A stretch of DNA of 32,000 nt from Pyrobaculum aerophilum str. IM2 (GTDB taxonomy: Archaea > Thermoproteota > Thermoprotei > Thermoproteales > Thermoproteaceae): positions 120,001-152,000 of the forward strand of contig NC_003364.1 of NCBI RefSeq assembly GCF_000007225.1, read 5' to 3'. Under the pieces are notes generated by a model that saw only the letters and a list, made by a program, of their open reading frames with translations, searched no databases and was not told where the DNA came from. How positions within the stretch are numbered: position 1 is the stretch's first letter; each line of letters begins with the position of its first letter. Both the position numbers and the translations under genes were made by a program. Below are positions 5,522-30,424 of the stretch, piece by piece.

Positions 5522-5761
5522 GAGGAGGCGGATGTTGAGGGGTCGGGAGACCTCCACGCGCTCTACGGCGACCTCATGAAGACGTTACACGAGGAGGCCT
5601 TCTACGAGGGCGTGTACCAGCCGGAGGAGGTGAAATATGCAGCGCCGCAGTATATCAGCCAGTTACGACAGCTTGTCTCCCACCCGCCGACGATGCGAGT
5701 TCACTACCAGAGGCGGCGTAGGATCTCAAGACCAGCCTCGGGAAGTCGCGGCCGTAAATAA
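5522..5761 (+). pseudogene. PaREP1-like C-terminal fragment, antisense-overlapping the purK 3' tail
   Basis: The frame reads ...GDLHALYGDLMKTLHEEAFYEGVYQPEEVKYAAPQYISQLRQLVS. This parallels the C-terminus of the neighbouring PaREP1 protein (GDVVYRAWDAAYFLHVNGFHEVRIDIDIVKAKLKAIEPMMELVK) in the pattern GD..LH..F.E..V..I..LV. No N-terminal half is present. Confidence 0.4.
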
Positions 5762-6794
5762 GTTGCAACGCCAGTCTGGCCTTCGAGGCGACCTCCGCGA
5801 GGGATCCGCCGGTGATGTTCACATGGCCCATCTTCCTCCTAGGCCTCGCCTCCTTCTTGTAGTACCAGTAGATCTTCCCGATCCTCTCCAGCTCAGCCAC
5901 GGGGAGCTTCTCAATAGGCACCCCCAGTATGTTGACCATCGCCGTCGGGGCAATCGCCTTGGGCTCCCGCACCGGGAGCCCCAAGACGGCCTTCACGTGG
6001 TTCTCGAACTGGCTCGCGTCAGTCTCAAGAGTCCAGTGAGCTGTGTTGTGAACTCTCGGCGCTATCTCGTTGGCCAATATCCTCCCGTCGCTTGTCTCGA
6101 AGAACTCCACAGCGAGGACCCCCACGTATTTCCACCTGTCAAGTATTCTGTGGACATACTCGTAGGCCTCCTCGGGGGCCTTCACGGGCGCGATGTTCCA
6201 AACCAATATGCCGTGTACGTAGTAGTTCTGGGCAGGCGGGTAGAAGTAGACGTTGCCATTCTCCGCCCTAACGGCCACAATAGAGAACTCCCTCTTGATG
6301 TCCACGTACTCCTCCACCAAGAGCTCCCCCTCGAGCCTTGAAATGGCCCCGGCCTCCCTCGGGTATACGTACTGCCCCTTCCCGTCGTATCCGCCCGTCG
6401 GCACCTTGACCACGGCCCTCCTCATGGACTCCGCAATTTTAAGCGCCTCCTCCCACCCGGCCGCCCGGCGCCACGGCACGGTGGGAACGCCTATCGAGTC
6501 GAAAAAGGCCCTCTCCTCCAGCCGGCTCTTCTTCAGACGCAGGTACGCCAGCGGCGGCCTGAGCTTGCCCAGCCTCTCAGCCCTCTCCGCGAGGGAGATG
6601 TCCACGTTCTCAAACTCGAAGGTGACGGCGTCGGCCCTCTCCACCTCTTCAAGCGGGTCCGCAGGCCTCCGCGCGCACCTATAGGCCGGCGCAGAGGAGT
6701 CGGGGTCGTACACAGAGAAATCCACAGGAATCCTCTGCGACTCCCAGCACATCATCAGCGCAAGTTGCCCCCCGCCGAGGACGAAGAGCCGCAT
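5655..6794 (-). CDS. purK: N5-carboxyaminoimidazole ribonucleotide synthase PurK (ATP-grasp)
   Basis: 379-aa ORF with an N-terminal MRLFVLGGGQLALMM, an ATP-grasp core and the C-terminal RKMGHVNITG motif. A TATA-like AGTTTAAAAGC (6813..6823) lies about 24 nt upstream of the ATG at 6794. The last ~30 residues (RDFPRLVLRSYAASGSELASSAGGRQAVVTG) look non-canonical and overlap the PaREP1 fragment. Confidence 0.93.
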   Translation of the reverse strand: MRLFVLGGGQLALMMCWESQRIPVDFSVYDPDSSAPAYRCARRPADPLEEVERADAVTFEFENVDISLAERAERLGKLRPPLAYLRLKKSRLEERAFFDSIGVPTVPWRRAAGWEEALKIAESMRRAVVKVPTGGYDGKGQYVYPREAGAISRLEGELLVEEYVDIKREFSIVAVRAENGNVYFYPPAQNYYVHGILVWNIAPVKAPEEAYEYVHRILDRWKYVGVLAVEFFETSDGRILANEIAPRVHNTAHWTLETDASQFENHVKAVLGLPVREPKAIAPTAMVNILGVPIEKLPVAELERIGKIYWYYKKEARPRRKMGHVNITGGSLAEVASKARLALQLIYGRDFPRLVLRSYAASGSELASSAGGRQAVVTG

Positions 6795-6861
6795 GGCGAA
6801 GTAGATTACTACAGTTTAAAAGCTTTAGTTAAAAAACAGACGGGGAACGCTGATGTAGCCC

Positions 6862-6898
6862 CGCCTTGTATTTAAACGTTTGGTGAAAAGGACTTTAT
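6862..6898. repeat. Left copy of a 37-nt imperfect direct repeat (putative att site) bracketing the island
   Basis: 6862..6898 (cgccttgtatttaaacgtttggtgaaaaggactttat) aligns base for base with 19456..19492 (cgcctgatgtttaaacgtctagtgaaaaggactttat). 32 of 37 positions match, with uninterrupted 9-nt and 16-nt blocks. Confidence 0.75.
6872..6898 (-). pseudogene. Displaced purE 3' end remnant (last 8 codons plus stop)
   Basis: The minus strand reads ATA AAG TCC TTT TCA CCA AAC GTT TAA, giving IKSFSPNV*. The intact purE end at 19466..19492 reads IKSFSLDV*. The remnant lies 77 nt upstream of the purK ATG and is followed, like the real purE end, by a T6 tract 35-41 nt after the stop (6831..6836 versus 19426..19431). 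Weaker similarity may continue to about 6960. Confidence 0.65.
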
Positions 6899-7221
6899 AT
6901 AAAGAGCACCACGTCCCGTATCTTCTTCACGCTCGCTTGACGCGCACGGCCCACTCCAGCAGGTCTAATGGTGCTGGGCAACGGCGATTAGGTTTTTGAG
7001 GGTGAGGCTCGCCTTGCCACCACTCTCCGCCCTGTCGATTATCCTATCCCCCGTCGCCCTCATGGACCGCGACGGCTATGTGCGGCGTTTTCACCTTCAC
7101 GTCGGCGTTTATCTCGCCCTTCTAGTCTGTCGGGGGTTGTATGCCCTCTTGCAACGGCTTTTCGCCGGGTTGCCTATCGTCTTGACGCCGTATTTTGAGC
7201 CAACTAGCTTAAGCAAGAGAT

Positions 7222-7572
7222 CTACGCCGTAGAGCTCCCGGCAGGCGCGGGCCCATGCCCGGATGCGAGGAGCGAGAGATGTAGCCAAAGACTACACGCG
7301 GTGGGTAGAGGCCCTGGTTTGTACACCACGCCTAATGAAAACACGGCACCAATATGCTTCAAATAGATAGCCGCATCGCCCCCAACCTCGGCGAGCCAGA
7401 CCTCCCCCGTCGCCGACAGCTGTACGCTCCTCATAGGCAGCTTCTTCCATTTCGCAGGGAGGTGATAGTATTATAGCAACGGGGGATCGCGCCCAGCGAA
7501 ATACGGCTCGAAATACTTCCACAGCTCCTCTGCAGCCTTTAGGAACACGCCGAGGGTGCCTGGAGGACAGCC
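7222..7572 (-). pseudogene. Degenerate ORF with an in-frame TAA; unidentified gene remnant (weak resemblance to an IS200/IS605 TnpB N-terminal region)
   Basis: One minus frame reads ...TLGVFLKAAEELWKYFEPYFAGRDPPLL*YYHLPAKWKKLPMRSVQLSATGEVWLAEVGGDAAIYLKHIGAVFSLGVVYKPGP..., with a TAA at 7471..7473. The segments LPAKWKK and IYLKHIG loosely recall the FKxK and lPkiG segments of TnpB. This is by eye only. Confidence 0.25.
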
Positions 7573-8006
7573 TCAACGCGACATAGGGCACCGCATACGT
7601 AGCGTAAAACCCCGGCGTCTTTCTGCCACATTAATGGGAGAATGGCATTTTACGTGTTCAGGCGCGTGATTTTTGATGTGGGCCCTCACGGCTGTTCTGC
7701 TCTCCGTCTGCTGTTGGTGTGGTGTGCGTAGGCCTATGTGCACAGGTTGCCGGCTATCCGGCCTTGTGGGGAAACGTCGGCGTAGAGCCGTCCAGCATAG
7801 GGCATGTGGCGTCGGTTGTGTGGTAGTGGAGGATGGCGGGAGTGTGGGCCAAAAGATCGGGGTGCGGAGCGGTGGATGATGTGATTGGTGCGCAAGCCGG
7901 CCGGCTTCAACACTGCGTTAATGTGCGTATGGGCGTGAAACGGTTCTTATAGGGCCGTAAACCGTTTAGCATTATTTTATAGAAAAATTATTAATAATTT
8001 TAACAG

Positions 8007-8900
8007 TTGCACCTCTTCGTGACAAACTACTGGCTCACCATGTTGCCTGAGGAAAATTTTAAGCGCGTCGTAGAGCTGGGCCTCTACGGGCTTCCTGCAA
8101 GCGTCGCAGAGATGGCGAAGAGGATAAAGCCAGGCGATAGGCTAGTGGTGTACATAATGAAAGAGGGCTGTAGAGAGCTGTGCCAGTCCTTCGCCGCGGT
8201 GCTAGAGGTGGTGGGCCAGTGGAGGAGGTCTAATAAGCCCATCTGGCCAGATGAGGCGAGGGAGGGACGCGTTAAGTACCCTTTGGTGGTGGACGTGAAG
8301 GCTGTGGCGATGGGCAAGGCTGAGTTTTCCAAAATAAGGGAGAGGCTGGAGGAGTTGATAGGCGCCGAGGGCCTAGACCCCAAGAAGCTGAGGCTCTACG
8401 CGCTTTACTACGCCAAGCGCCCCTTGCCGCCCGGCGTCGGCGAGTTCATCGAGGAGTTGCGGAGGGCGGAGCGGCGCGCGGCCGGGGAGGAGCTCTCCCA
8501 TAAAGAGCTCGTGGAGGCGGTTGTGGAGGTTGGGCGTTGGCTTGGCTTTAGAGTGGAGCGGGAGTACCGCATAGACAACTTCAGGGTAGACGCGGCGTTT
8601 TTCAAGCCGCCGAGGGCTACGCCTTATGCCGTCGTCGAGGTGCATGTAGGGGGCGACGTGTATAAGGACTTGGCCGCGCTGAAGCACGCCTATGACAAAT
8701 ACGGCTGCAAGCTGGTGTACGTACTGGCGAGGGACGAGGAGCAAGTCGCCAAGTTGCTAGACGAGGCGCTTCAAGGCGCCTTCCACGAGATTAGAGAACA
8801 CGTCGCCGTGGTGAAGCCCATGGAGTTGCTCAAACTACGCGAAGCGCTGAGGCAAGAGGGGGTTATGAGGCTTTTAAAGTGGCTAGAGGTGGTAAAATAG
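8007..8900 (+). CDS. EVE (PUA-like) domain protein fused to a C-terminal PD-(D/E)xK-like nuclease domain; candidate modification-dependent (type IV-like) restriction enzyme
   Basis: The N-terminal ~130 aa (NYWLTMLPEENFKRVVELGLYGLP...IKPGDRLVVYIMKEG...FAAVLEVVGQW...IWPDE...KYPLVVDVKAV) fits the archaeal EVE/UPF0310 pattern. The C-terminal part (WLGFRVEREYRIDNFRVDAAFF...PYAVVEVHVGGDVYKDLAALKHAY) has an E...D...E-x-H/K restriction-endonuclease-like arrangement. The track start is TTG 8007. GTG 8019 lies about 25 nt downstream of the very AT-rich box 7985..8002 and is the more likely leaderless start. Confidence 0.65.
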   Translation: MHLFVTNYWLTMLPEENFKRVVELGLYGLPASVAEMAKRIKPGDRLVVYIMKEGCRELCQSFAAVLEVVGQWRRSNKPIWPDEAREGRVKYPLVVDVKAVAMGKAEFSKIRERLEELIGAEGLDPKKLRLYALYYAKRPLPPGVGEFIEELRRAERRAAGEELSHKELVEAVVEVGRWLGFRVEREYRIDNFRVDAAFFKPPRATPYAVVEVHVGGDVYKDLAALKHAYDKYGCKLVYVLARDEEQVAKLLDEALQGAFHEIREHVAVVKPMELLKLREALRQEGVMRLLKWLEVVK

Positions 8901-8935
8901 CCGCTAGGCATATAAATCAGCGGGTACATGTCTTC

Positions 8936-9112
8936 ATGAAATGCCCCTACTGCGGCTCGGAAAACGTGGAGGCTGTCAAGAGCTGGGAGATGCCGAAGAT
9001 GGGCTTCAATGTAACTCACTACCGTTGCAAAAGCTGCAGCGGCTTGTTCAACCACTACGTCGGGAGGGGCAAGGAGTTCGTGTTGAGGGTGGGGCTGAGA
9101 CGTAGGGGCTGA
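8936..9112 (+). CDS. Zinc-ribbon miniprotein (58 aa, CxxC...CxxC)
   Basis: MKCPYCGSENVEAVKSWEMPKMGFNVTHYRCKSCSGLFNHYVG... has two CxxC pairs. A TATA-like ATATAAAT at about 8909..8916 lies 20-27 nt upstream of ATG 8936. The track's longer 8879 start overlaps the upstream gene and precedes the TATA. A T6 tract follows at 9325..9330. Confidence 0.6.
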   Translation: MKCPYCGSENVEAVKSWEMPKMGFNVTHYRCKSCSGLFNHYVGRGKEFVLRVGLRRRG

Positions 9113-9406
9113 GTCCGCGGTGTTAAGGAGCTGAATAGTAATATGAAAAATTTCTATTTAAACTCCAGCTGGCAGTTTATACGTGAGGAGCGGCCTTCCT
9201 CGTATTGTCAATCGGGATAATTCGGCTACAGCCATTCCGGCACGCTTGCATATAACCGGAAGCAGTATATCAGTAAGGCGAGGCTCGGCCGTGGAGGGCG
9301 CAACAGGTGGTCTTAAGGGATTTTTTCTTAACATGAAGAGGCTATTCACCGTTCCCCTAGACACCTCGCGGGAGCTCTACATAAGGGATTACAGTCGGCT
9401 GAGGCC

Positions 9407-12400
9407 ATGACCCAGGTCGGCATACCCCAGATAGATCTTGACGACGTTTTGCTGTGTATAAGAAGAGCCGTCCAAATGGCCCGTAGCGAGGAGGACGTGA
9501 GGGTGAGGGTCTCCTCGTGTATAGAAGAGAAGATTTTGAAGCCGCTTGGCCTTGAACACGCCGTTGGTAGGTACGAGTATACGCTTGTTTCTGGGGCTAG
9601 GGTAGACGCGCTTTACGGACACGTGATCATCGAATACAAGGCGCCTGGCAAACTGTCCTCAGCCAGCGACGTCGCCAAGGCCAAGGAGCAAGTGGTGAGA
9701 TATATCATGGGTGAGGCTGGGAGCAAGTCTGAGTGGCCGCGGTATCTCGGCGTGATAATAAGCGACAGAATCGCCTTTGTGAAATACGATCCGCAAAGCG
9801 GCACTTGGATACTAAGAGGGCCTTACGACATCCGGCGCGAGGTGGTGATAAAGCTGATAGAGGCTCTGAGAGGCCTCAGGAGGAAAAACCTCGACGTAAA
9901 CAACCTAGTCAAAGACTTCGGCCCCAACTCGCCAATAGCAATGAAAACTATCAAGCTTCTGTACCGCAAACTTACAAGTAGCAACAACCCCAGGGTCAAG
10001 GTGCTCTTCGACGACTGGATGAGACTTTTCAAACAAGCCACTGGCTACAACCCAGAGGAGCTGGAGGAGTTGCCCAAGCTGGCCGAGGAATATGGGCTGA
10101 CGGGCGGGGTGAACTACGATGCGTTGCTATTCGCAATACACACCTACTACGCTCTGATAATGAAGCTGATCGCCGCCGAGATAGCTTACCTGTACGGCGG
10201 CGGGAAGTTCTACAGATCCTACGTGGCGGAGCTTGACGACGCGTACTCCAGGGAGGGGGTTGAGGGCATTAGGCAGGTTTTGAGAGATCTTGAGAGCGGC
10301 GGCGTGTTTAGAAATTTACTAAATATTGAGAATTTCCTCGAGGGGGACTACTTCTCGTGGTACCTCGACGAGCTAGATAAAGAACTTGCCGATGCAGTTG
10401 CCGAAATTGCCAGGAGGCTATCCGACTACGAGGTGGCGGCGCCTCAGCTAGAGCCCGAGTTCGCCCGCGACTTACTGAAGAGACTATACCAAAACCTCGT
10501 GCCTGGGGAGATACGGCACAAGCTGGGCGAGTACTACACGCCTGATTGGCTGGCCGAGCTGGTGCTAGACGAGGTGGGGCTGAGCCTAAAAAATTTGCTT
10601 AAAATGGGCGAGGAGGATCCCCTTAAGCCGTTGAAAATAAGGGTACTAGACCCGGCGTGCGGCTCCGGCACCTTCTTAATGCTTTACATAAGTAGGCTTA
10701 GGAGATACGCCGAGGAGCACTATATGACAGATCAGCTCCTGAGCTATGTGTTGGAGAACGTCGTCGGCTACGACCTCAACCCCTTGGCCGTGCTGACTGC
10801 TAGGACAAACTACCTCTTGGCGGTAGCGGATCTGCTCAGCTATGCGAAGGGAAGAGTTGAGATACCGATATACCTAGCCGACTCTATTATGATTGAAAGA
10901 AACTCGCACTTAGCCGGCGACGTGTACTTACTTAGATCTGTCGTCGGCGAGTTCCAAATACCAAGAAGCGTGGTGGAGAAAGGATTGTTGCCCGAAGTAT
11001 TATCAGAGGTGGCTCAAGCGCTGAGAAATAGGTACACCCCCAAGGACTTCGCGGAGAGGGTGAGGTATAGATTCAAGGAGCTGGATCAAGGCGACGTCAA
11101 TATACTAAAAGGACTCTACGAGAAGTTGTATAAGCTCGAAGAGGAGGGGAAAGACGCTGTGTGGATCTCAGTCTTGAGAAACGCCTTCGCGCCTGTCCTC
11201 AAAGGCAAATTCGACTACGTAGTTGGAAATCCGCCATGGGTAAACTGGGAGAACCTACCAGAAAGCTATAGGAATGTAAGTAGGGATCTATGGGCTAAGT
11301 ATGGACTCGCCGAGATCAAAGGCAAGACGGGATTAGGCAAGGTTAAAAGAGATTTGGCAATGCTCTTCGTAGCAAGAAGCTTCGATCTGTACCTCAGGGA
11401 GGGGGGCAAGCTGGGATTCCTAGTACCATTTACAGTATTTAAAATGCAGGCTGGTGCGGGCTTTAGAGATTTCCTAGCTAGGAAGACCCGTATACATGTT
11501 ATCCATGACCTGGTAACTCTATTTCCATTTGAAGGGGCAACAAATAGGACGGCGGCAATAGTTATCGAAAAGGTTTGTAGCCTATCCGATACCGGAGGCA
11601 AATGCACACAGATGATAGAGACTTTTAAGAATAATATCAATGGAGTGAGACATGTAATATGGGTTAATACGTCAAGAAGAGCTATACCAACAGACATGCC
11701 ATTAGAGGAGGTGCTAAAGAGGACAAGGAGATACGAGGCTGTAATGGCCCCGATGATGCCAAACGACCCCTCCAGCCCGTGGATGCAAGCAACGCCATCG
11801 GTAATCAAGCTGATAAGAAAATTGACAAGCGGAAATCAGTACTACGAGGCTCACGAGGGGGTTAACACGGCGTTGAACCAAGTATACTTTGTAAAGATAC
11901 TTGAAAAGCTCCCTAACGGCATGTTAAAGATAACCAACCCTCCCGAGCCGGGTCAAAAGAAGAAGGTTAAACAGGTAGATGCTGTAGTAGAGCCAGATCT
12001 GATTTACCCACTAATAAGAGGGAGAGATGTGAAGAAATGGTATGTGGGATTTGAAGATAGGTATATTATTCTTCCTATAGATTCGCGAGGCGATCCTATT
12101 AGTCACGATAAAATGAAAACTAAATATCCAAATACCTACGACTACTTCTTCAGATTTTTTAAAGAACTTATAAGTAGGAGTGGTGAACCATATAAATCTA
12201 AGCTAGAACCTTATAGAAAGCTACCTTTTGAAAAAGCTGAAAAAATTGCGCCCCCCTTCTATTGGATATTTAACGTAGTTCCTAGTCTAGCGCCTTACAA
12301 AGTTATCTGGAAATCAATTGCTGGTGCTATTACTGGGAAGGCTGTTGATTTTGCCTGCGCCGTTGTGGGGCCTTTTACGGATAAATTCCTCGGTTCTAAA

Positions 12401-13126
12401 ATTGCTATACCTGAGCATAGCACAATTTTCATAGGGTTTGATAACGCTGATGAGGCTTATTATGTTGCTGGCGTCCTCAACTCAACGCCTGTAAAGACCG
12501 TAATCGCGTCGTATACCTATGAACTTAGACAAGAAACACACATAGTAGACAACGTTAAAATCCCCAAGTACGATCCAGAGAACGAGTTGCATAAGAAGAT
12601 AGCTGAACTCTCCAAGAGGGCTCACGACCTTGCCAAAGAGATACACGAGGAGAACAGGAGAAATCTTGAGACTGAGCTTAGGAAGGTTGAGGAGGAGTTG
12701 GATATCGTTGTTGCTAAGCTGTTTGGTATGGGCGAGGCTGAGCTTAGGGAGTTTAAGAAGTTGTTAGCTATTCTTTCTGGTAGTGAGTATTCTGAAGAGG
12801 AAGAGGAAGTTGCTGTACCGGAGAAACCTACTGTTCACGTTCTGAATACTTCTCTGCAACCTGGCGTTGAATCATATATAGAAGTTGACGTGGTAAACCC
12901 CTCAGGTGAGGAGCTGGTGTTTACCTACGAGCTGCCTTGGGGCAAGGGCTCTTTCAGTATAATTACCGGGAGGTACCGCATACCTACGCCGCCTTTGAAG
13001 CCCGGCAGATACAGTGGCGTTCTTAAGTGGAGGTGGCGGGGGGAGGAGCACTCTGTTGACATCGTCGTGGAGGTGGCGCAGCCGGAGGGGCCGAGGAGGA
13101 GGAGCACGCTTTTCGGCTCCAGATGA
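9407..13126 (+). CDS. Type IIG/IIL-like (MmeI-style) fused restriction-modification protein: N-terminal PD-(D/E)xK nuclease motif, gamma-class N6-adenine DNA methyltransferase, TaqI_C-like target-recognition region, and an extra C-terminal beta-rich domain
   Basis: The nuclease-like motif is D67-x8-E76-x-K78 (ARVDALYGHVIIEYKAPGKL...AKEQVVRYI; D at 9605..9607, ExK at 9632..9640). The pre-motif is GEYYTPDWLAELV. SAM motif I is VLDPACGSGTFL (10643..10678) and motif IV is NPPW (11228..11239). The TRD-like part contains EAHEGVNTALNQVYFV and LIYPLIRGRDVKKWYV. The canonical C-terminal helix is VVAKLFGMGEAELREFKKLL. It is followed by an acidic linker (EEEEE) and a ~110-aa beta-rich tail. Confidence 0.85.
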   Translation: MTQVGIPQIDLDDVLLCIRRAVQMARSEEDVRVRVSSCIEEKILKPLGLEHAVGRYEYTLVSGARVDALYGHVIIEYKAPGKLSSASDVAKAKEQVVRYIMGEAGSKSEWPRYLGVIISDRIAFVKYDPQSGTWILRGPYDIRREVVIKLIEALRGLRRKNLDVNNLVKDFGPNSPIAMKTIKLLYRKLTSSNNPRVKVLFDDWMRLFKQATGYNPEELEELPKLAEEYGLTGGVNYDALLFAIHTYYALIMKLIAAEIAYLYGGGKFYRSYVAELDDAYSREGVEGIRQVLRDLESGGVFRNLLNIENFLEGDYFSWYLDELDKELADAVAEIARRLSDYEVAAPQLEPEFARDLLKRLYQNLVPGEIRHKLGEYYTPDWLAELVLDEVGLSLKNLLKMGEEDPLKPLKIRVLDPACGSGTFLMLYISRLRRYAEEHYMTDQLLSYVLENVVGYDLNPLAVLTARTNYLLAVADLLSYAKGRVEIPIYLADSIMIERNSHLAGDVYLLRSVVGEFQIPRSVVEKGLLPEVLSEVAQALRNRYTPKDFAERVRYRFKELDQGDVNILKGLYEKLYKLEEEGKDAVWISVLRNAFAPVLKGKFDYVVGNPPWVNWENLPESYRNVSRDLWAKYGLAEIKGKTGLGKVKRDLAMLFVARSFDLYLREGGKLGFLVPFTVFKMQAGAGFRDFLARKTRIHVIHDLVTLFPFEGATNRTAAIVIEKVCSLSDTGGKCTQMIETFKNNINGVRHVIWVNTSRRAIPTDMPLEEVLKRTRRYEAVMAPMMPNDPSSPWMQATPSVIKLIRKLTSGNQYYEAHEGVNTALNQVYFVKILEKLPNGMLKITNPPEPGQKKKVKQVDAVVEPDLIYPLIRGRDVKKWYVGFEDRYIILPIDSRGDPISHDKMKTKYPNTYDYFFRFFKELISRSGEPYKSKLEPYRKLPFEKAEKIAPPFYWIFNVVPSLAPYKVIWKSIAGAITGKAVDFACAVVGPFTDKFLGSKIAIPEHSTIFIGFDNADEAYYVAGVLNSTPVKTVIASYTYELRQETHIVDNVKIPKYDPENELHKKIAELSKRAHDLAKEIHEENRRNLETELRKVEEELDIVVAKLFGMGEAELREFKKLLAILSGSEYSEEEEEVAVPEKPTVHVLNTSLQPGVESYIEVDVVNPSGEELVFTYELPWGKGSFSIITGRYRIPTPPLKPGRYSGVLKWRWRGEEHSVDIVVEVAQPEGPRRRSTLFGSR

Positions 13127-14535
13127 GCGAGCTGAATAACAAGGTGAAGAGGTGCTTCGGCGACTACGCCGTGGATAAGAGGCTCGCCTACGAGCTGGAG
13201 TTGGCTAAGCTGCCTAGATACGTGGCGGAGTTTCTAATCTCGGAGTTCATGACGCTGGGCGGGGACTGGGAGGGCAAGCTGAGGAGCTTTATTAGGGAGC
13301 GCTACTACGAGCCTGAGGAGAAAGAGGTCGTTAAGCACAAGCTTGTGACTGAGGGCGTGGTTGAGCTTATCGACGAGCTTAGGGTCTACGTAGATGTGGA
13401 GACGGGGGCTCACATAGGGGTCATACACGCCCTTGACATATGGGCTGAGGTGCCTGTGGACATCGTCGAGAGGAACAGGGCGACGCTGACAACCGGCATG
13501 TGGGGCTTGATAACTCTACAGCGGTGGGAGGGGGTCAGAGAGATTTTGGGGAGGCCCGTGTCCGTCGTCGTGACAGACTTCAAGCCCTTCCAAGCGCCGG
13601 ATACAGACCCCAAGATCCTGGAGGAGGGGAGGGGGTGTTTCACGCTGGAGGAGTGGGTGGAGGTTTTGATAAACACCATAGGCCTTGACCCCGCCGTCTA
13701 CAGCCCCCGGCAGAGGCTCCTCCTCCTCGCCCGCCTAGTCTCCCTAGTAGAGGGGAATGTAAACATGGCTGAGTTTGGGCCTAGGCAGACCGGCAAGACG
13801 TACCTCTATAGAAACGTGAGCAACTACGTGAGGATAATCTCAGGGGGCGTCATATCCCCAGCCGCCTTGTTCTACAATCTGAGGACTAAAGTGCCGGGCG
13901 AGCTGGCCCTCAAGGACGCGGTGGTTTTCGACGAGGTGAGCAAGGTGAGGTTTCCCAACCCCGACGAGATGATGGGCAAGCTTAAGGACTACATGGAGAG
14001 CGGCCACTATGAGAGGGGGGACAAAAAGGTGGTGTCCGACGCCTCTCTGGTCTTTATGGGCAACGTGTCGGTTGAGCTGACTTCCGAGGGCTATGTACCG
14101 GTGGAGGACTTGACCTACGTCTTGCCGGAGCCCATGAGGGACTCCGCGTTTATTGACAGGATACACGGCCTTCTTCCAGGCTGGGAGCTTCCGAAAATAT
14201 CTCAGAGCAAATACCACCTGTCTAAGGGCTACGGCGTGGCATCCGACTACTTCGCCGAGGCGTTGCACGGCATGAGGAAGGAGAGCTTGTCGGGGCTTGT
14301 GGGAAGGCACGTGGAGCTTTCTGAAAACTTCAAGATTAGGGATGAGAAGAGCTTTAAGAGAATTACCAGTGGCTTGTTGAAGCTCCTATTCCCCGACAAG
14401 ACTTTTGACAAGAAGGAGCTCAAAACCATCGCGGAGTTCGCGCTGGAGTTGAGGCAGAGGGTCAGAGATTGGCTACACAAGATCGCACCGGGGGAGTTCC
14501 CACGCGAAGTCCTCAGCGTAAGAGTTCTGCCATAG
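13123..14535 (+). CDS. BrxL-like AAA+ ATPase (COG4930 / PF13337 / TIGR02688-like) without a Lon protease domain
   Basis: 470-aa ORF whose ATG overlaps the upstream stop (ATGA at 13123..13126). The N-terminus (FGDYAVDKRLAYELELAKLPRYVAEFLISEF...YYEPEEKEVVKHKL...VELIDELRV) and DSAFIDRIHGLLPGWELPK match my memory of the BrxL ATPase family. Walker A is GPRQTGKT (13777..13800). Walker B is AVVFDEV (D/E at 13930..13935). Sensor-1-like is LVFMGN. The protein ends about 90 aa after the ATPase core, so there is no protease domain. Confidence 0.7.
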   Translation: MSELNNKVKRCFGDYAVDKRLAYELELAKLPRYVAEFLISEFMTLGGDWEGKLRSFIRERYYEPEEKEVVKHKLVTEGVVELIDELRVYVDVETGAHIGVIHALDIWAEVPVDIVERNRATLTTGMWGLITLQRWEGVREILGRPVSVVVTDFKPFQAPDTDPKILEEGRGCFTLEEWVEVLINTIGLDPAVYSPRQRLLLLARLVSLVEGNVNMAEFGPRQTGKTYLYRNVSNYVRIISGGVISPAALFYNLRTKVPGELALKDAVVFDEVSKVRFPNPDEMMGKLKDYMESGHYERGDKKVVSDASLVFMGNVSVELTSEGYVPVEDLTYVLPEPMRDSAFIDRIHGLLPGWELPKISQSKYHLSKGYGVASDYFAEALHGMRKESLSGLVGRHVELSENFKIRDEKSFKRITSGLLKLLFPDKTFDKKELKTIAEFALELRQRVRDWLHKIAPGEFPREVLSVRVLP

Positions 14536-14787
14536 CCATTCTCCACAGTCACGGATATCCCCCGTTCCACATTTGAGTGGCTATTGCCGAGACATGTACC
14601 TGTGTTGCAGATCGGCGTAATACTTAACTTCACGCCGAAAGTGACTTCTTAAAGATTCTCGAAGAGTAGGTAAGACCGCCCGTTGAGAACTTCCGAGGAC
14701 ATCGTAAAAGGCTGGCGTAGTTATATTTCCTAAGTGATATAATCTATGGTTCGTTTTCTTCATTAATACCTAGGCGTATTTCCCTTA

Positions 14788-15093
14788 GTGAAAGTAAGAT
14801 TGGTGGACAGGATAGGTGAAGTTGGTCTGTACGAGGTCTCGGCCGATTTGGCGTGGAGTGATTATCTGTATGTTGTGTTCAAGGCTAGGCGCGAAGTGGG
14901 AACTGCGATCACCAAGATCATATACTCAGATGGGAAGTGGTTACTGCCGTTGCCGACAGTTGCCGAGGACGTGGAGCTAATCTACGTGGGACCTGTGGAA
15001 GGTCTGAGGTGGGAGAGTTCTGAAGGCCAACACGCCGGTTCTGAAGGCGTAGCTCTTGGCAATGGCGACGCCGTTGGGGGCTATTCTCAGTAG
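14788..15093 (+). CDS. Hypothetical small protein (uncertain)
   Basis: GTG-start ORF. The first ~63 codons lie in the convergent intergenic gap and read protein-like (KVRLVDRIGEVGLYEVSADLAWSDYLYVVFKARREVGTAITKIIYSDGKWLLPLP). A TATA-like ATTAATA lies about 20-29 nt upstream. The last ~39 codons overlap the herA 3' end on the opposite strand, which weakens the call. Confidence 0.3.
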   Translation: MKVRLVDRIGEVGLYEVSADLAWSDYLYVVFKARREVGTAITKIIYSDGKWLLPLPTVAEDVELIYVGPVEGLRWESSEGQHAGSEGVALGNGDAVGGYSQ

Positions 15094-16785
15094 CTGGCTG
15101 TACTCTCTTAGGCCGAAGCTCTCCAATACGGTTTCATCGCTTCTGAATACTACTTTTGTGTTAGACAGCTGGGTCACTAGGGGGTTTAGGTCTTCCGGCA
15201 TGTGGGTTGCAAACGCCACTCCTACGCGGCGCACTCTTCCCAAGCGCGTCAGTTTGTTTATCATATCCTCTACCGCCTCTTTGCTTACGTTTTCGCCTCT
15301 CTCTGTCTGGGGGAAGTACTCGTGCGCCTCGTCTACCAGCACCAGCATTGGCTTGGGCGTGCCTGTTCTCAGCTCCCTGTCCTTTATCTCCATAAGCTTT
15401 CTCAACAGCCTATACACCACGATTGAGGCCGCAGTCGGTTTTTCCATAAAGAGCTCTAAGTATACAACTGCCGGGTTTTCAAATACCGTGTCGTAGTTAG
15501 GCTCTCCTATCTTGATGCAAGGCTTATTTGTTTTGCTTAGACACCACTCCACGTCGAGTATGTCGGTGCCCTTCAACATAAAAAAGCCGCGTATGATGCT
15601 CTCTATTTGCGAGGAATGTAATTTTAACTTCTCTTTTATTTGTCCTTCAAGCTTATTTATCTTCTCTACAGCAACACGTATCGTTAAGTTGTTTGGATCG
15701 CCTTCGCCAATCTTTTCTACTAGAAGCGAAGCTATGTCTTTGTATAGCAGTGCTATTCTTTGCGTGCCAAAGAATGGGAAGAGGGATGGGACGTCGAATA
15801 TGACGTCTCTTAGGTTTAAGGCCCATGTCACAACATCAATCTCCGCATTGGACAGATACACGGTGAAGCCCTTTACATATCCCACGCCATTTTTCTCCTC
15901 TGCCTCAGGCACCACATCGCCGGAGATGCCGGCTCGTCTTAAGAAGAGTTGCCCTAGGCCGTAGGACACGGCCTCTGCGAAGAGCTTCGGGTCATTAATT
16001 ACAGAGAGATCGCCTTCCTGCTCGATCTTTTCCAGATATTCGTTTGCGTATCTGATGAGCTCTTTGTTTTCTCTAAAGAGGAAGCTCTGGGTTACTGGCC
16101 ATATTATAGTAAGCTTGTCGAGTGGCTTGTAAATTGAGTCTGGCGCCGGGTAAACTAGGTGTATGAAGTCCCCCTGGATGTCGAAGGCGAGCGGTATCAC
16201 GCCGAGGTCCCAATACGCAGAAATGGCCAAGTTTTTGAGAAACGTGGTCTTGCCGGCGCCGGTGGTGCCCACCACTAGCATGTGGGTGAAGAGGGCTTCT
16301 TTGGGCAGCCTCACATATATGTCTAGCTCTTTGCTTACGTAAAGCTTGCCCAACAACGCCCCGTGCTGAGGTATGCCGAGCATAATTGCTATGACTTCGG
16401 GAGAGGGCGCATAGACCGCGCTTGTGGGGTCTACAGGCGACGCCGGCTGGGTGGGGTCGCAGTTCTCCAAGCTCGGACACTCGGCAATTGGCTCAAGCTC
16501 CAGGAGCGCCGGGGTGGTGAGGCCTTGGGGATCGTTGATGTATGTATCCATCGGCTCTATACCTAACAAGGCAACAAGGTGTCTTCTCTGAATTGACGTA
16601 ATCCGCGCAAGAATAAGCGATTTGTGAACCGCTGTTTCTATGAGGAGGAGCTCGCCGACCTTTAGCAACCTAGATTTATATACATCAAATGGGATTTCCA
16701 CCAATATTTTATGCTGTGGGCCGACGGCTATCACCTCGCTTGCCGAGACGATGCCTATTTTTTCACCGAGTTTTTCACCGAGCAT
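14977..16785 (-). CDS. herA: HerA-type FtsK/HerA-superfamily ATPase (HAS-barrel plus P-loop)
   Basis: 602-aa ORF. The N-terminal HAS-barrel-like region is GIVSASEVIAVGPQHKILVEIPF...VGELLLIE...LARITSIQRR. Walker A is GTTGAGKTT (16243..16269). Walker B is PMLVLVDEAHEYFP, with a downstream RLGRVRRVGVAFATH. Its start overlaps the nurA stop by 11 nt. Confidence 0.85.
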   Translation of the reverse strand: MLGEKLGEKIGIVSASEVIAVGPQHKILVEIPFDVYKSRLLKVGELLLIETAVHKSLILARITSIQRRHLVALLGIEPMDTYINDPQGLTTPALLELEPIAECPSLENCDPTQPASPVDPTSAVYAPSPEVIAIMLGIPQHGALLGKLYVSKELDIYVRLPKEALFTHMLVVGTTGAGKTTFLKNLAISAYWDLGVIPLAFDIQGDFIHLVYPAPDSIYKPLDKLTIIWPVTQSFLFRENKELIRYANEYLEKIEQEGDLSVINDPKLFAEAVSYGLGQLFLRRAGISGDVVPEAEEKNGVGYVKGFTVYLSNAEIDVVTWALNLRDVIFDVPSLFPFFGTQRIALLYKDIASLLVEKIGEGDPNNLTIRVAVEKINKLEGQIKEKLKLHSSQIESIIRGFFMLKGTDILDVEWCLSKTNKPCIKIGEPNYDTVFENPAVVYLELFMEKPTAASIVVYRLLRKLMEIKDRELRTGTPKPMLVLVDEAHEYFPQTERGENVSKEAVEDMINKLTRLGRVRRVGVAFATHMPEDLNPLVTQLSNTKVVFRSDETVLESFGLREYSQLLRIAPNGVAIAKSYAFRTGVLAFRTLPPQTFHRSHVD

Positions 16786-17797
16786 AACACTCCATTAAGC
16801 TGTCATACGTGAGGTTGAGCCCCTTCCCCATTAGTTTTACGCAGATTAGGCGTGCTAGTCTCTTGCTGAGGTCTTTTGCTAGCTTATCTACTAACGCTAT
16901 GTGGTAGGGCAGGCCTGGGACAACTCTGTTTCTTAACAACGTGGGTAACACCTCCTCGGCGTACTCCTTGCGAAATGCCTCAACCCTGAATATCGAGCTT
17001 GCGCTGTATATATACCACAGGTAGCGCTCTGGTAGAGGGTGTAATTTACTCTGCCTAAACGTCTGCTTAAATGGCCCGAAGACTACTACGTCTCTGTAAG
17101 ACCTCATGTGCATCCTCCCGAGCTCTGCCACTACCGCCATGTCGTTACACGCAGCGTCTATCCGAATGCCCATCTCCTCGACCCACTCCTTAGCCCTGCA
17201 CAACTTCTTAGACGTCTCTAGGCGTTTCACCACCGCCACTACGCGCTTATCCCACAGCGCCTCCACCCTCCACCAGTCTATTTCTGGAAATCCCCGTATG
17301 CCGTAGTACAAGGGGCCGTCTATTAGCGCAGTTCCCTTCGCCTCTTTAATTAAGGCAATTTCAACGGCCTCTCTTACCACTTTCCCCACTACGTCTTCAG
17401 GCACGTCGCTTTTGAAGAACTTCTCACCGTTTGCGAATCTGTATTTCACAATCGCCACGTCCTCTAGCCTCCTCAGAGCCTCCTCGTCGTCTGACTGCAA
17501 TGCCACGTGCTTTACGTCCCTAAAGCCGGGAATAGTCAAGATGCCCAGCTTAGTGTAGGCGACTCCGACGGCGAGAAATAGGCGAAATGTAGGCGTGGTG
17601 ATAGTCCGGAGAGAGCCATCTACGGCGTAGTCCACTGGGGGCCCATTGGGTGGAAGGTCGTCGTAGTGGAACACGCCAGCCTCGGAGCTGTGGATATCGC
17701 TGAGGTCCTCCTCCTGGATCTGGATCCTAGGACCCAACGGCTTTTTGATTGAGGATAAGTTGTCTATAAGCGCCTCTAGTCTCTTCAAAAACTCCAT
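16775..17797 (-). CDS. nurA: NurA-domain nuclease
   Basis: 340-aa ORF with NurA-like motifs in order: DYAVDGSLR (D60), REAVEIALIKEAKGTALIDGPLYY, VVAVVKRLETSKKL, IFRVEAF and GLPYHIALVDKLAK. It lies immediately upstream of and overlapping herA. A very AT-rich promoter region (17801..17830) lies about 25 nt upstream of the ATG. Confidence 0.75.
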   Translation of the reverse strand: MEFLKRLEALIDNLSSIKKPLGPRIQIQEEDLSDIHSSEAGVFHYDDLPPNGPPVDYAVDGSLRTITTPTFRLFLAVGVAYTKLGILTIPGFRDVKHVALQSDDEEALRRLEDVAIVKYRFANGEKFFKSDVPEDVVGKVVREAVEIALIKEAKGTALIDGPLYYGIRGFPEIDWWRVEALWDKRVVAVVKRLETSKKLCRAKEWVEEMGIRIDAACNDMAVVAELGRMHMRSYRDVVVFGPFKQTFRQSKLHPLPERYLWYIYSASSIFRVEAFRKEYAEEVLPTLLRNRVVPGLPYHIALVDKLAKDLSKRLARLICVKLMGKGLNLTYDSLMECYAR

Positions 17798-18505
17798 ATC
17801 AAAATTTTAATAAAAAGGTATAATTATTAAAGCTATTCCCAGAGTTGTCACAGTGAGGTAACGGCGACGTGGGCGGACAGAGTTTGAGGGCGACCGCCTA
17901 AATCGCCTTACTTAAGTCCAAAGGCCCTGGCGACAAGGCAAGTTTTGACAATAGGGCTCCACTATAGCGTTAACAATATGGAGCAGACAAAGCCAGTTGC
18001 AAGCGATATCGCATAATCTGCGCACTACCTGTGACAACCGCTTATGGACAAACCTTCCAAATATGCTTAGGGGATTTACGAGAGCGTTAGCGATAAAGCT
18101 TGAGGAAACCTCCTGATGCATCTAAACCTCATGGAGCTCGGCGGCTTTTACACATGGAATGCGCTGAGGGAGGTTGCAGAACGAGCTTACAAGCTGTCTC
18201 AACAACTTTGTAAAAAACCGGCACTATGCACAACCCCCTCTCGCAACTCGGGTTTATGACGTCTTGTACCACTGCGCATAGAGCCCCCGCAAGCTCTACC
18301 TAGAGCTGGCTAAGCCGTACATCCCATGACAATATTAACAAGGCTTGTATAAATGATATGAGCCGTTCAGACTGCTGTCGTCCGCCGGCCCACGTGGATG
18401 TACGTCGCCTGCAAGGATCGCGGAACGCAATGTCGCAGAAGCAATGAGACAAGGCGCCCACGCAAGTCTCATTTACGCCTAGCAGAGCCCGTCTTTGTTA
18501 AACGG

Positions 18506-19144
18506 CTATGGCAGGCCTAACACGGCCTTTAGGGCTTTTCTCCTCTCCAGAATCTCTTTGTCGCTTGGCAGTAGCGGATTTCTCGTCTCTGTGCAGTAGT
18601 CGACTATCCACTTGGCGACGTAGCATGTCTCCACTAAGCCCAGCCTCTGGGGCTTAAACGCCTTCAGCAACTCCCTCTCCACGTCGGCTATTTTCACAGA
18701 GAAGTAGGCCGTCGGTAGCTTGAGCTTTTCCACCACCTCCCCAACCACTTCGCTGTAGGCCTCCACGTCCGCGTCGTCTATCCCACTTTCAAAGACGTGT
18801 ACGAGGACAGCCACGTCGAAGCCGTAGAGGTAGTACCTAAGCGGCTGGCCAAACTCGCGGTACGCCCTCCTCCAACGTTTTCTCCCAGCTGTTTTGAAGT
18901 ACTTCAGCTCCATAGCGGCTAGGACATGATTGTGGGAGTCTTTCACAACTAACACGAGATCCGGCTTGGCCACGAAAGCCGGGATGCGAGAGCCAAGGCG
19001 CTTGGCGAGCGCCTCCATACGCTCTTTGGATATTGCGCCTTCCAAGAACACCTCGCCAAGCCGTGGGTCGCAAGCCTTTAGGGTTTTGGCAAGCCACCTA
19101 GCAACTGCGCGCTCATTTGCAAACATACCACATACTGTTCGCAT
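18506..19144 (-). CDS. Hypothetical protein with a PD-(D/E)xK nuclease signature
   Basis: 212-aa ORF with P61-D62...E79-L80-K81 (AKPDLVLVVKDSHNHVLAAMELKYFK). A TATA-like CTTTTTAAAA abuts the track ATG at 19144. The internal ATG at 19126 (MFANERAV...) is about 25 nt from it and is the more likely start. Confidence 0.55.
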   Translation of the reverse strand: MRTVCGMFANERAVARWLAKTLKACDPRLGEVFLEGAISKERMEALAKRLGSRIPAFVAKPDLVLVVKDSHNHVLAAMELKYFKTAGRKRWRRAYREFGQPLRYYLYGFDVAVLVHVFESGIDDADVEAYSEVVGEVVEKLKLPTAYFSVKIADVERELLKAFKPQRLGLVETCYVAKWIVDYCTETRNPLLPSDKEILERRKALKAVLGLP

Positions 19145-19455
19145 TTTAAAAAGCTTGACGGCCTAGGGAGGCACGCCGGGATTTTTAACCCTACGCCGAC
19201 GTATATAGCTTGACCGGGAGGAGCTAAACCACCTCGATGGCGTCTAGAACCCTTTCCCCTTATACCCCTCTGCGTTTGGCCCATCGCCCCCACAGCGCTC
19301 CTACTGACGCCGTGAGTGCGGAGTCCCCAGCTTGTGCTCACAAGCGCCGCTTTTTAGCTTAACCCTAATCCTCAAAATCTTGGCGAGGACGTAGAGCCGC
19401 GTGTGGGTGCTACAACGCCCTATTTAAAAAAGGAACAGGTTCGTGGAGAACTACT

Positions 19456-19492
19456 CGCCTGATGTTTAAACGTCTAGTGAAAAGGACTTTAT
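19456..19492. repeat. Right copy of the 37-nt imperfect direct repeat (putative att site), overlapping the purE stop codon
   Basis: See the left copy at 6862..6898; 32 of 37 positions are identical. This copy covers the last 8 codons and the TAA of the intact purE. Confidence 0.75.
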
Positions 19493-19954
19493 GAAGGACT
19501 TGGACAGTACCTCTTCTCTCATCTTTTCCATGTGTTCTTTAACCTTCTGCCTCACCTCTGGGTATTTTATGCCCAGTATCCTGGCGGCGAGATAGGCGGC
19601 GTTGGCGGCGTTGCCTATGGCCACTGTGGCGACGGGAGTGCCCCGGGGCATTTGTACAATTGACAACAGGGAGTCCAGCCCGCCTAAGTGTTTTGTGGGG
19701 ATGGGGACCCCTATGACCGGCAGCGGCGTTAGGGAGGCGGTCATGCCGGGGAGGTGGGCCGCCCCGCCGGCGCCGGCTATTATCACGTCGAATTTCCCCT
19801 CGGCCTCCTTGGCGAATTGGTACATGAAATCCGGCGTCCTGTGGGCGCTGACGACCCGCGCCTCGTAGGGAATGCCCAGCTGCTCCAAGACCTCAAGCGC
19901 CTCTTTCATGACCTCAAGGTCGTTTATCGACCCCATTATAACCGCAACCTTCAT
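19466..19954 (-). CDS. purE: N5-carboxyaminoimidazole ribonucleotide mutase PurE
   Basis: [19 protein letters not shown]...VVSAHRTPD...[17 protein letters not shown]...PVIGVP are PurE hallmarks. A TATA-like TTTATAAA (about 19973..19980) lies about 23 nt upstream of ATG 19954. The track's 20005 start would add 17 non-conserved residues and lies upstream of the TATA. Confidence 0.93.
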
Positions 19955-20025
19955 GTATAATTTTATGCCACGGTTTATAAAGGTGCGGCGCGTTGAAAAT
20001 ATCACTTGCTACGGCGCGTGGCGCC

Positions 20026-30133: not shown

Positions 30134-30424
30134 GTGAGGATAAAGATAAAAGATCTGGCAGAAAACGCCATAACCCCGCTCCCAGAACTGGGGGCATTTG
30201 CCGTAAAGAGGGGCGGAGAGATATACGTCTATAAAGACGAGTGTCCCCACGCCTATTGCAACTTCACTACCTCTGGTCAGTTGGAGGGGGATTACATCAT
30301 ATGCACATGCCACTGGTGTAAATTCGATTTGAGGACAGGGGCCTCTCTGACGCCTGAGCTAACAGCCGAGCCGTTAAGGAAAATTAGCTTTAAGGTGGAG
30401 GGGGAGGAGTTAGTTTTCACCTGA
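30134..30424 (+). CDS. Rieske [2Fe-2S] domain ferredoxin
   Basis: The Rieske ligand pattern is C-P-H-x17-C-T-C-H (ECPHAYCNFTTSGQLEGDYIICTCHW). The 96-aa size fits a stand-alone Rieske ferredoxin. GTG start. Confidence 0.8.
   Translation: MRIKIKDLAENAITPLPELGAFAVKRGGEIYVYKDECPHAYCNFTTSGQLEGDYIICTCHWCKFDLRTGASLTPELTAEPLRKISFKVEGEELVFT

Follow-up and report, generated by a model that had tools for sequence, protein, structure and literature searches.

The window analyzed here is a stretch of 32,000 nucleotides (nt) from the genome of the archaeon Pyrobaculum aerophilum str. IM2 (contig NC_003364.1, positions 120,001 to 152,000). It contains two adjacent genes on the + strand. The first (9407..13126) encodes a type IIG restriction-modification (RM) enzyme of 1239 amino acids (aa). 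The second (13123..14535) encodes a 470-aa AAA+ ATPase of the BrxL family without the C-terminal domain (CTD) of the BrxL from type 1 bacteriophage exclusion (BREX) systems. The stop codon of the first gene and the start codon of the second overlap in an ATGA (13123-13126). Both open reading frames (ORFs), their sizes and the overlap are as described in an earlier reading of the DNA letters, referred to below as the original prediction. What appears to be new is the pairing of the two proteins, in which a BREX ATPase has joined an RM system.

The type IIG enzyme and the BrxL-like ATPase

The 1239-aa protein matches the curated PADLOC model REase_MTase_IIG (PDLC03630) end to end, with 1328.9 bits for residues 18-1125 on model positions 15-1100 of 1100. 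This full-length match agrees with the single-chain type IIG architecture that had been proposed. A Pfam scan of both proteins, reported down to E ≤ 0.1, gave matches to Eco57I (residues 450-702, E = 7.6e-19) and N6_Mtase (E = 6.3e-07). The predicted order of domains is an N-terminal nuclease of the PD-(D/E)xK type, a helical spacer, a γ-class N6-methyladenine (m6A) methyltransferase (MTase), a target recognition domain (TRD) and a C-terminal extension. A structure comparison yielded no solved structure close to the enzyme. An identical protein (100%, P0271) is encoded on a 43-kb ENA metagenome contig.

The putative nuclease motif, D67 followed by E76-x-K78, lies in RVDALYGHVIIEYKAPG (9605..9640, + strand). 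The three residues are invariant in 27 of 27 close homologues and kept in 15 of the 16 full-length, diverse homologues that are linked to BrxL; the exception (locus L034) has EYER instead of EYKA. The motif is also retained in standalone bacterial homologues and in variants without BrxL. In an AlphaFold2 model (predicted local distance difference test score, pLDDT, of 73), D67 is located on one strand and E76 and K78 on the next, within an α-β-β-β-α-β core. MTase motif I, which binds S-adenosylmethionine, is found in VLDPACGSGTFL (residues 413-424, 10643..10678, +), and its DPACGSGTF is invariant in all aligned homologues. The catalytic motif IV of the N6-adenine class, NPPW (residues 608-611, 11228..11239, +), is situated inside the Eco57I domain and is likewise invariant. 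The nuclease triad and the γ-class N6-adenine MTase of the original prediction are thus both borne out by conservation, the latter also by its Pfam matches.

The hypervariable part of the TRD comprises residues 901-1000 (12107..12406, +). In its two 50-aa halves it is only 26% and 60% identical to the homologue from Pyrobaculum oguniense TE7, as against 76-98% for residues 1-700. The DNA from 12069 to 12290 has no nucleotide homology to P. oguniense, and the hypervariable part sits in a dip in G+C content at 11-13 kb. Hypervariability of this kind between close strains would be expected for a specificity determinant in an arms race.

Two labels from the original prediction did not hold. The specificity region had been called TaqI_C-like, and there is no Pfam TaqI_C match at E ≤ 0.1; the TRD is recognized through the full-length IIG model only. 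The enzyme had also been described as MmeI-style. Its match to MmeI_Mtase is borderline, covering 63 residues with 27.6 bits where the cutoff is 27.0, and the other MmeI domain families (N-terminal, helicase-spacer, TRD and C-terminal) gave no match at E ≤ 0.1. A more fitting description is that of an Eco57I-domain type IIG enzyme, which shares the layout of N-terminal nuclease, MTase and TRD.

The 470-aa protein comprises a BrxL_N domain (Pfam PF20442, residues 11-133, E = 7.5e-28; 13153-13521, +) and a BrxL_ATPase domain (PF13337, residues 148-462, E = 6.9e-118; 13564-14508, +). The Walker A motif GPRQTGKT (13777-13800, +) contains K225, and the Walker B residues D270 and E271 are encoded at 13930-13935 (+). 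Across diverse homologues, these three residues and the DRIHG..PGW segment vary little or not at all. On the NCBIfam model of short BrxL proteins (TIGR02688) the protein reaches 627.8 bits (cutoff 329.3) over model positions 1-449 of 449. On the model of the long BrxL of type 1 BREX (TIGR02653) it scores 299.5 bits, below the threshold of 628.25. Lon_C gave no match in the Pfam scan. The protein aligns to residues 16-463 of the 679-aa BrxL from Acinetobacter (PDB entry 8EMC) with an E-value of 7e-72 and is 97% identical to a Pyrobaculum protein. The BrxL-like N-terminus, the Walker motifs and the missing Lon protease had all been predicted correctly. By Pfam, TIGR02688 and 8EMC the protein is a true member of the BrxL family and does not fall into an unrelated AAA+ family, and it is, by its conserved motifs, a catalytically intact homologue of the DNA-encircling BrxL ATPase.

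A BrxL without protease is not new in itself. It corresponds to the known TIGR02688 family and to the form found in type 4 BREX, in which BrxL has no C-terminal extensions (PMC12839542). In Acinetobacter BrxL the Lon-like CTD mediates the tail-to-tail stacking of rings (PMC12707154). Since this domain is missing here, the short BrxL must assemble differently, possibly helped by its partner. In three Bathyarchaeota loci (L008, 10001-11899; L009; L010) the IIG-linked BrxL has 632-646 aa and a C-terminal extension of ~170 residues. This extension matches nothing in Pfam or NCBIfam and is therefore, judged by sequence, not Lon-like.

Conservation of the pairing and the C-terminal extension

To survey the gene neighborhoods we scanned one genome per species with an alignment of eight BrxL sequences (an alignment of 26 sequences was too diverse). 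The scan returned 80 loci, and their neighboring genes were assigned by tblastn and ORF clustering. Together with other loci, the pair was found in ~27 distinct loci. They are spread over many archaeal phyla and belong to Pyrobaculum, Caldivirga, Saccharolobus, Ignisphaera, Infirmifilum, Bathyarchaeia, Caldarchaeum, Nitrososphaerota, Methanodesulfokora (Korarchaeota), ANME-1/Alkanophaga, Thermoplasmata and Aenigmatarchaeota and, among bacteria, to Thermotogaceae. On each of three long contigs, from Saccharolobus shibatae B12, Ignisphaera and a hot-spring metagenome, an Eco57I-family gene coding for 1219-1240 aa lies immediately upstream of the ATPase gene, and neither PglZ nor BrxC is encoded within ±10 kb. 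An IIG homologue is present upstream in every locus whose ATPase is at least ~49% identical to that of the window, and in several loci at 44-49%.

The same result was obtained from the side of the IIG enzyme. Caldivirga maquilingensis and a 492-kb contig carry the ATPase gene directly downstream. In a metagenome scan, 69 loci extend at least 300 nt downstream, and 66 of them show the same arrangement, with the ATPase starting 12-30 nt past the last aligned IIG residue. Where the genes are adjacent in genome loci, they are -26 to +10 nt apart in 13 of 18 cases. The pair is thus strongly conserved from either side, in keeping with the tight coupling that the original prediction had emphasized.

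In a neighbor-joining tree BrxL groups by genomic context; the IIG-linked proteins form clades of their own, separate from those adjacent to PglZ. Distances between IIG enzymes correlate with distances between their BrxL proteins (Mantel rho 0.82, a value reached in 0 of 2000 permutations). The ratio of nonsynonymous to synonymous substitution rates (dN/dS) between the window and P. oguniense is 0.125 for the IIG enzyme and 0.045 for the ATPase. These comparisons point to co-divergence of the two proteins and to purifying selection on both. Taken together, the conserved adjacency and spacing, the context-specific clades, the correlated distances and the dN/dS values exclude, for practical purposes, a chance adjacency within a defence island.

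The DNA that the window has in common with P. oguniense TE7 is restricted to 8026-8850, 8936-12069 and 12290-14540, with 74-87% identity over the module, and the flanks differ. Integrases flank two copies (L001 and L086), and a gene of the pRN plasmid type is also among those flanking some copies. Many IIG-BrxL loci have no recognizable genes of mobile elements nearby. The module moves as one block, between different genomic sites as well as on elements with flanking integrases. A scan of viral contigs returned only three distant BrxL relatives (36-38% identity), so the module is not typically viral. The IIG-linked BrxL clade is not represented in PLSDB, where the best match, from Thermus, is 39% identical.

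Several loci contain further genes within or after the pair. These encode PIN domains (L021, 5764-9900; L025, 1552-2145), an RNase H-like exonuclease (L028, 4096-4620), an SMC-like ATPase (L030, 6902-9986), an MTase with a BrxC/D-like ATPase (L021) and a PLD-family nuclease after a split BrxL gene (L086, 11740-14167). They look like accessory effectors.

Relatives of the IIG enzyme without the ATPase were found among bacteria and archaea. Distant bacterial homologues (27-30% identity, 1050-1085 aa) occur alone on small plasmids with no ATPase nearby. Because they keep the nuclease and MTase motifs, the family is, by ancestry, one of self-sufficient IIG enzymes. These homologues stop ~25-30 residues past the position equivalent to residue 1075 of the window enzyme. 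With the exception of L034, all ATPase-linked enzymes continue beyond this point with a helix, an acidic linker, a β-rich domain of ~90 residues and a charged tail.

In the window, this C-terminal extension (12779..13123, +) consists of an acidic, disordered linker (residues ~1125-1141), an immunoglobulin (Ig)/PKD-like β-sandwich (residues ~1142-1223) and the basic tail GPRRRSTLFGSR. The sandwich is modeled by AlphaFold2 with seven strands and a pLDDT above 90, and a Foldseek search with the extension retrieved Ig/PKD-like domains at E-values of 2e-4 to 1e-3. Three archaeal metagenomic variants that lack BrxL (L129, L139 and L157) have IIG ORFs that end exactly at the acidic linker, and all their catalytic motifs are intact. 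Between the window and P. oguniense, similarity is highest in the Ig-like domain and the ATPase (88-97%) and lowest in residues 901-1000 of the TRD (26-60%). These patterns suggest a single cassette made up of the Ig-like domain and the ATPase. L034 (1930-9231) is the sole IIG-linked locus with an altered nuclease motif; it also lacks the Ig-like extension, and three genes on the opposite strand separate its IIG and BrxL genes. It may be a decaying or rewired copy.

Known systems, accessory genes and genomic setting

The original prediction had described the island as free of PglZ and BrxC. Indeed, no ORF is large enough (the IIG enzyme is the only one of at least 1000 aa) and no match to either family was found among the window ORFs scanned. 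No PglZ/BrxC cluster is present within ±10 kb of the pair in any IIG-type locus. The best NCBIfam PglX model gives 48.8 bits for the IIG enzyme (cutoff 400), and the PADLOC PglX model 50.6 bits as compared to 1328.9 bits for the IIG model. At the level of the locus every defining test for BREX fails: there is no PglZ, no BrxC and no match at the level of PglX.

In PADLOC-DB v2.0.0 the IIG enzyme matches only RM, PglX, mad2 and DrmMI models, and the ATPase only BrxL models. The database contains no system-specific model (PDC, HEC or other) for any component, and none that matches the two accessory proteins described below. A 2026 survey of BREX describes BrxL as specific to types 1 and 4 and does not mention IIG, Eco57I or MmeI (PMC12839542); likewise, a structural study of BrxL limits the gene to these two types (PMC10164562). 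The pairing is not described in the searchable literature, including reviews and surveys of archaeal RM and defence systems, and an earlier passing mention is possible. The view that the pair has no named system therefore still applies to PADLOC-DB v2 and to this literature. Overall, the interpretation given in the original prediction is supported. The MADS system was rejected as an assignment: the matches to mad2 and mad8 are weak, with tiny scores compared to those for the IIG and HerA models.

The closest known relatives of the first protein are type IIG/IIL enzymes (Eco57I-domain enzymes; MmeI, DrdV, BpuSI), which also consist of one chain with an N-terminal D...ExK nuclease, a γ-class MTase (DPACGSG, NPPW) and a variable TRD. 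The clade of the window differs in its acidic linker, Ig-like domain, charged tail and an almost obligatory BrxL-like ATPase downstream. To our knowledge, classical IIG enzymes work independently of ATP and without a partner.

Type 1 BREX (BrxA, BrxB, BrxC, PglX, PglZ, BrxL) likewise combines an IIG-related m6A MTase/specificity protein with a BrxL ATPase, and the N-domain and AAA+ core of BrxL are homologous. The window locus, however, lacks PglZ, BrxC, BrxA and BrxB, and its BrxL lacks the Lon-like CTD. PglX contains no nuclease domain, whereas the MTase protein of the window keeps one. Type 4 BREX (BrxP, BrxC, PglZ, short BrxL) has the same short BrxL architecture of TIGR02688 without a CTD, but it relies on phosphorothioation marking and on PglZ and BrxC, in place of which we find an m6A IIG enzyme with neither protein nearby. 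McrBC, the Type ISP enzyme LlaGI and CglI/NgoAVII are analogous in concept only, as nucleases combined with an NTP-driven DNA motor, and we claim no sequence relationship. The motor of McrBC is an AAA+ ring, and the system is modification-dependent and has no MTase; in Type ISP enzymes a superfamily 2 motor is fused into the same chain. The BREX-related (BR) systems with DUF499 and DUF1156-type MTases (Rakesh and Krishnan 2026) also represent an RM-like reuse of BREX parts outside canonical BREX. BrxL is not listed as a BR component in that paper, and the window module contains neither DUF499 nor a helicase.

Short BrxL appears to be a portable module that is also found in several other contexts outside BREX. 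A six-gene cluster occurs in 11 loci of Thermoproteota and Bathyarchaeia, among them L018 (3114-12748), L019, L020, L022, L029, L033, L047, L052, L068 and L069. It encodes a ~160-aa protein, a ~1000-aa HmaB/DUF1156-like MTase, a ~1087-aa protein without Pfam or PADLOC match, short BrxL, and two proteins of ~272 and ~172 aa, also without matches. It may represent an undescribed BrxL-containing, RM-like system. In L036 short BrxL adjoins DUF499. On plasmid pTHEOS01 of Thermus oshimai JL-2 (L089, 3628-18750) it is found among genes for vWA, tubulin-like and hypothetical proteins, a 3'-5' exonuclease and a very large RecQ-family helicase. In five Nitrososphaerales loci (L050, L053, L055, L061, L070) short BrxL is consistently preceded by a protein of 305-415 aa (cluster 11), which has no Pfam or PADLOC match.

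The module is larger than the original prediction had stated, as a zinc (Zn)-ribbon gene and sometimes an EVE gene belong to it. The span in common with P. oguniense comprises four genes, in the order EVE, Zn-ribbon, IIG enzyme and ATPase. The operon core runs from the Zn-ribbon protein through the type IIG enzyme to the CTD-less BrxL, with the EVE gene as an occasional passenger. P. oguniense TE7 (L005, 3443-5687) differs from the window by an insertion of two minus-strand genes (285 and 466 aa) between the EVE gene and the Zn-ribbon/IIG genes; thus, the module tolerates insertions at that point.

The Zn-ribbon protein (8936..9112, +; 58 aa, CPYCG...CKSC) is encoded by the first operon gene in most loci. 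In L002, L006 and L008 a homologue immediately precedes the IIG gene. A hidden Markov model (HMM) of the protein matches in the window, L005, L002, L006, L008, L085 and L086, and gives no strong match in loci without IIG enzyme. Among the metagenomic IIG loci, 52 of 80 have the gene, which mostly ends 3 nt before the IIG start. Family searches gave only generic zinc-ribbon matches, Lar and Com among them, all below threshold. The protein probably controls expression or activity.

The EVE gene (8007..8900, +) encodes 297 aa with the EVE domain at residues 7-148 (Pfam EVE, E = 2.4e-12), and its region 8026-8850 is 74% identical in nucleotides to P. oguniense TE7. An EVE HMM found homologues in six distinct IIG-type loci and in 0 of ~57 other BrxL loci (hypergeometric p ~7e-4); seven of the 80 metagenomic IIG loci carry the gene. 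The Pyrobaculum protein is ~150 residues longer than the ~150-aa EVE proteins of other loci. No family matches this additional C-terminal half (8457..8897). Visual inspection shows a D...E-x-H stretch in it (RVDAAFF...AVVEVHVGG), perhaps a degenerate nuclease motif.

Between the Zn-ribbon and IIG genes lies a leader region (9113..9406, +) with an A+T-rich, TATA-like element near 9153-9164, assigned as a promoter by eye. An ORF at 9183..9410, which overlaps the IIG start by an ATGA, was rejected as a leader peptide or gene. It is probably non-coding, with 42% amino acid identity to P. oguniense despite ~80% identity in nucleotides.

The module is part of an island (~6800..19450) that interrupts purine-biosynthesis genes, between purK (5655..6794, -) and purE (19466..20005, -). 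Apart from the four genes discussed above, the island contains HerA, NurA and ORFs without assignment, such as 18506..19144. The HerA-like ATPase (14977..16785, -; 602 aa) and the NurA nuclease (16775..17797, -; 340 aa) overlap by 11 nt and match the PADLOC 'Type III coevolved' HerA and NurA models (7.4e-59 and 8.8e-12). They form a second, unrelated defence-like pair. We rejected them as members of the system, since they have no homologue in any other locus and there is no nucleotide homology to P. oguniense beyond 14540. Scans of the window for tRNA genes and Rfam families found nothing, and no recognizable integrase was detected in it; a PaREP1 gene is present. Outside the island, a 245-aa protein (30417..31154, -) combines HEPN and minimal nucleotidyltransferase domains, a toxin-antitoxin-like arrangement in one polypeptide.

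Proposed mechanism and alternatives

We propose that the locus is a mobile, methylation-based (RM-type) defence operon of thermophilic archaea and Thermotogaceae, in which BrxL was added to a self-sufficient IIG enzyme as an ATP-driven accessory to restriction. We give this reading a probability of roughly 0.55.

In the proposed mechanism the IIG enzyme would mark host DNA with m6A at its own site and detect such sites on incoming DNA when they are unmodified. The BrxL ring would be recruited to this DNA, or retained on it, through the flexible C-terminal part of the enzyme with its Ig-like domain and tail. BrxL is known to encircle double-stranded DNA in an ATP-dependent manner (PMC10164562). 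In type 1 BREX, brxL is required for restriction and not for methylation (PMC12707154), and here, too, BrxL would spend ATP on the restriction side only. It could help the IIG nuclease to cleave, by remodeling or translocating DNA, or it could block replication of the invader. BrxL would be an acquired enhancer that is not needed for self-protection; an enhancer is more plausible than a requirement because the BrxL-less variants keep all catalytic motifs.

Several observations weigh against this proposal. A fold search with a model of the N-terminal 340 residues gave no significant match (best E-value 0.12, with DrdV and NucC matched weakly), so the nuclease assignment rests on motif conservation and the order of secondary structure elements, not on fold. 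In some loci other genes (PIN, RNase H-like exonuclease, SMC-like ATPase) are located between the two, and the BrxL gene is split in L021, L059 and L086. The standalone homologues and the three BrxL-less variants demonstrate that the IIG enzyme can persist alone. The joint loss of the Ig-like domain and BrxL could also result from single deletions spanning both, and their physical linkage allows the same explanation. Finally, it is from gene order and co-occurrence that we deduce the physical interaction, the sequence of the steps and what the Ig-like domain would do.

Among the alternatives, the one that survives best assigns BrxL the role of a regulator or safety device. ATP-driven removal, restraint or assembly of the IIG enzyme on host DNA would then limit autoimmunity or coordinate methylation with replication. 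We consider this unlikely. In its favor, the IIG family is self-sufficient elsewhere, so that a partner would not have to make it more lethal. BrxL forms an MCM-like ring on double-stranded DNA and has no known catalytic effect on it (PMC10164562), and an Ig-like tether would fit any type of interaction. On the other hand, type 1 BREX needs brxL for restriction only (PMC12707154). The IIG variants without BrxL persist with intact nuclease motifs, an argument against BrxL being essential to prevent toxicity.

Somewhat less probable still is that the operon serves its carrier element and not host defence, as an addiction or maintenance module or through an MCM-like replication function. RM systems can act as selfish addiction modules, and integrases or the pRN-type plasmid gene flank some copies of the operon. 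The structural similarity of BrxL to MCM (PMC10164562) is compatible with this idea as well. The hypervariability of the TRD between close strains, however, is typical of an arms race over target specificity, and many loci have no recognizable element genes in their vicinity.

It is improbable that the pair belongs, as a fragment or an accessory, to a BREX system with its PglZ and BrxC genes at another site of the same genome. BrxL has otherwise been reported only from BREX types 1 and 4 (PMC12839542, PMC10164562), and in L037, L038 and L048 we find short BrxL together with DUF6079/BrxC and PglZ. Yet no IIG-type locus has a PglZ/BrxC cluster within ±10 kb, the module travels as a unit between sites and on integrase-flanked elements, the IIG-linked BrxL clades are separate from the PglZ-adjacent ones, and the IIG enzyme scores far below the PglX cutoff (48.8 against 400 bits). 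That the two genes are independent neighbors without functional link, as the unrelated HerA/NurA pair in the island and the usual solitary action of IIG enzymes might suggest, is already largely refuted by the co-occurrence in 66 of 69 loci, the overlapping or abutting ORFs, the co-divergence, the context-specific BrxL clades and the coupled loss of the Ig-like domain and BrxL, whereas HerA/NurA recur in no other locus, and we regard it as very improbable.

Returning to the IIG enzyme with BrxL as its restriction accessory, a more specific version can be put forward tentatively. The operon might represent a new class of ATP-dependent RM system, in which the IIG enzyme at unmodified sites loads the ring of the CTD-less, MCM-like AAA+ protein BrxL via the tethered Ig-like domain, as a motor or clamp for efficient restriction. 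It would amount to a two- or three-gene 'mini-BREX with a nuclease', and short BrxL would be a portable effector module in at least five methylation-based systems.

BREX has been hard to dissect since six large proteins act together. Here, the N-domain and ATPase core of BrxL are paired with a single enzyme of a well-understood kind. If the coupling is functional, the pair would provide a minimal system to measure the contribution of BrxL with and without ATP, the Ig-like tether and methylation. The finding also corrects the current statement that confines BrxL to BREX types 1 and 4. Thermoproteota have been reported to possess few defence systems beyond RM, CRISPR and Argonautes (PMC12988326); the operon adds to these an apparently unrecognized, common defence operon.

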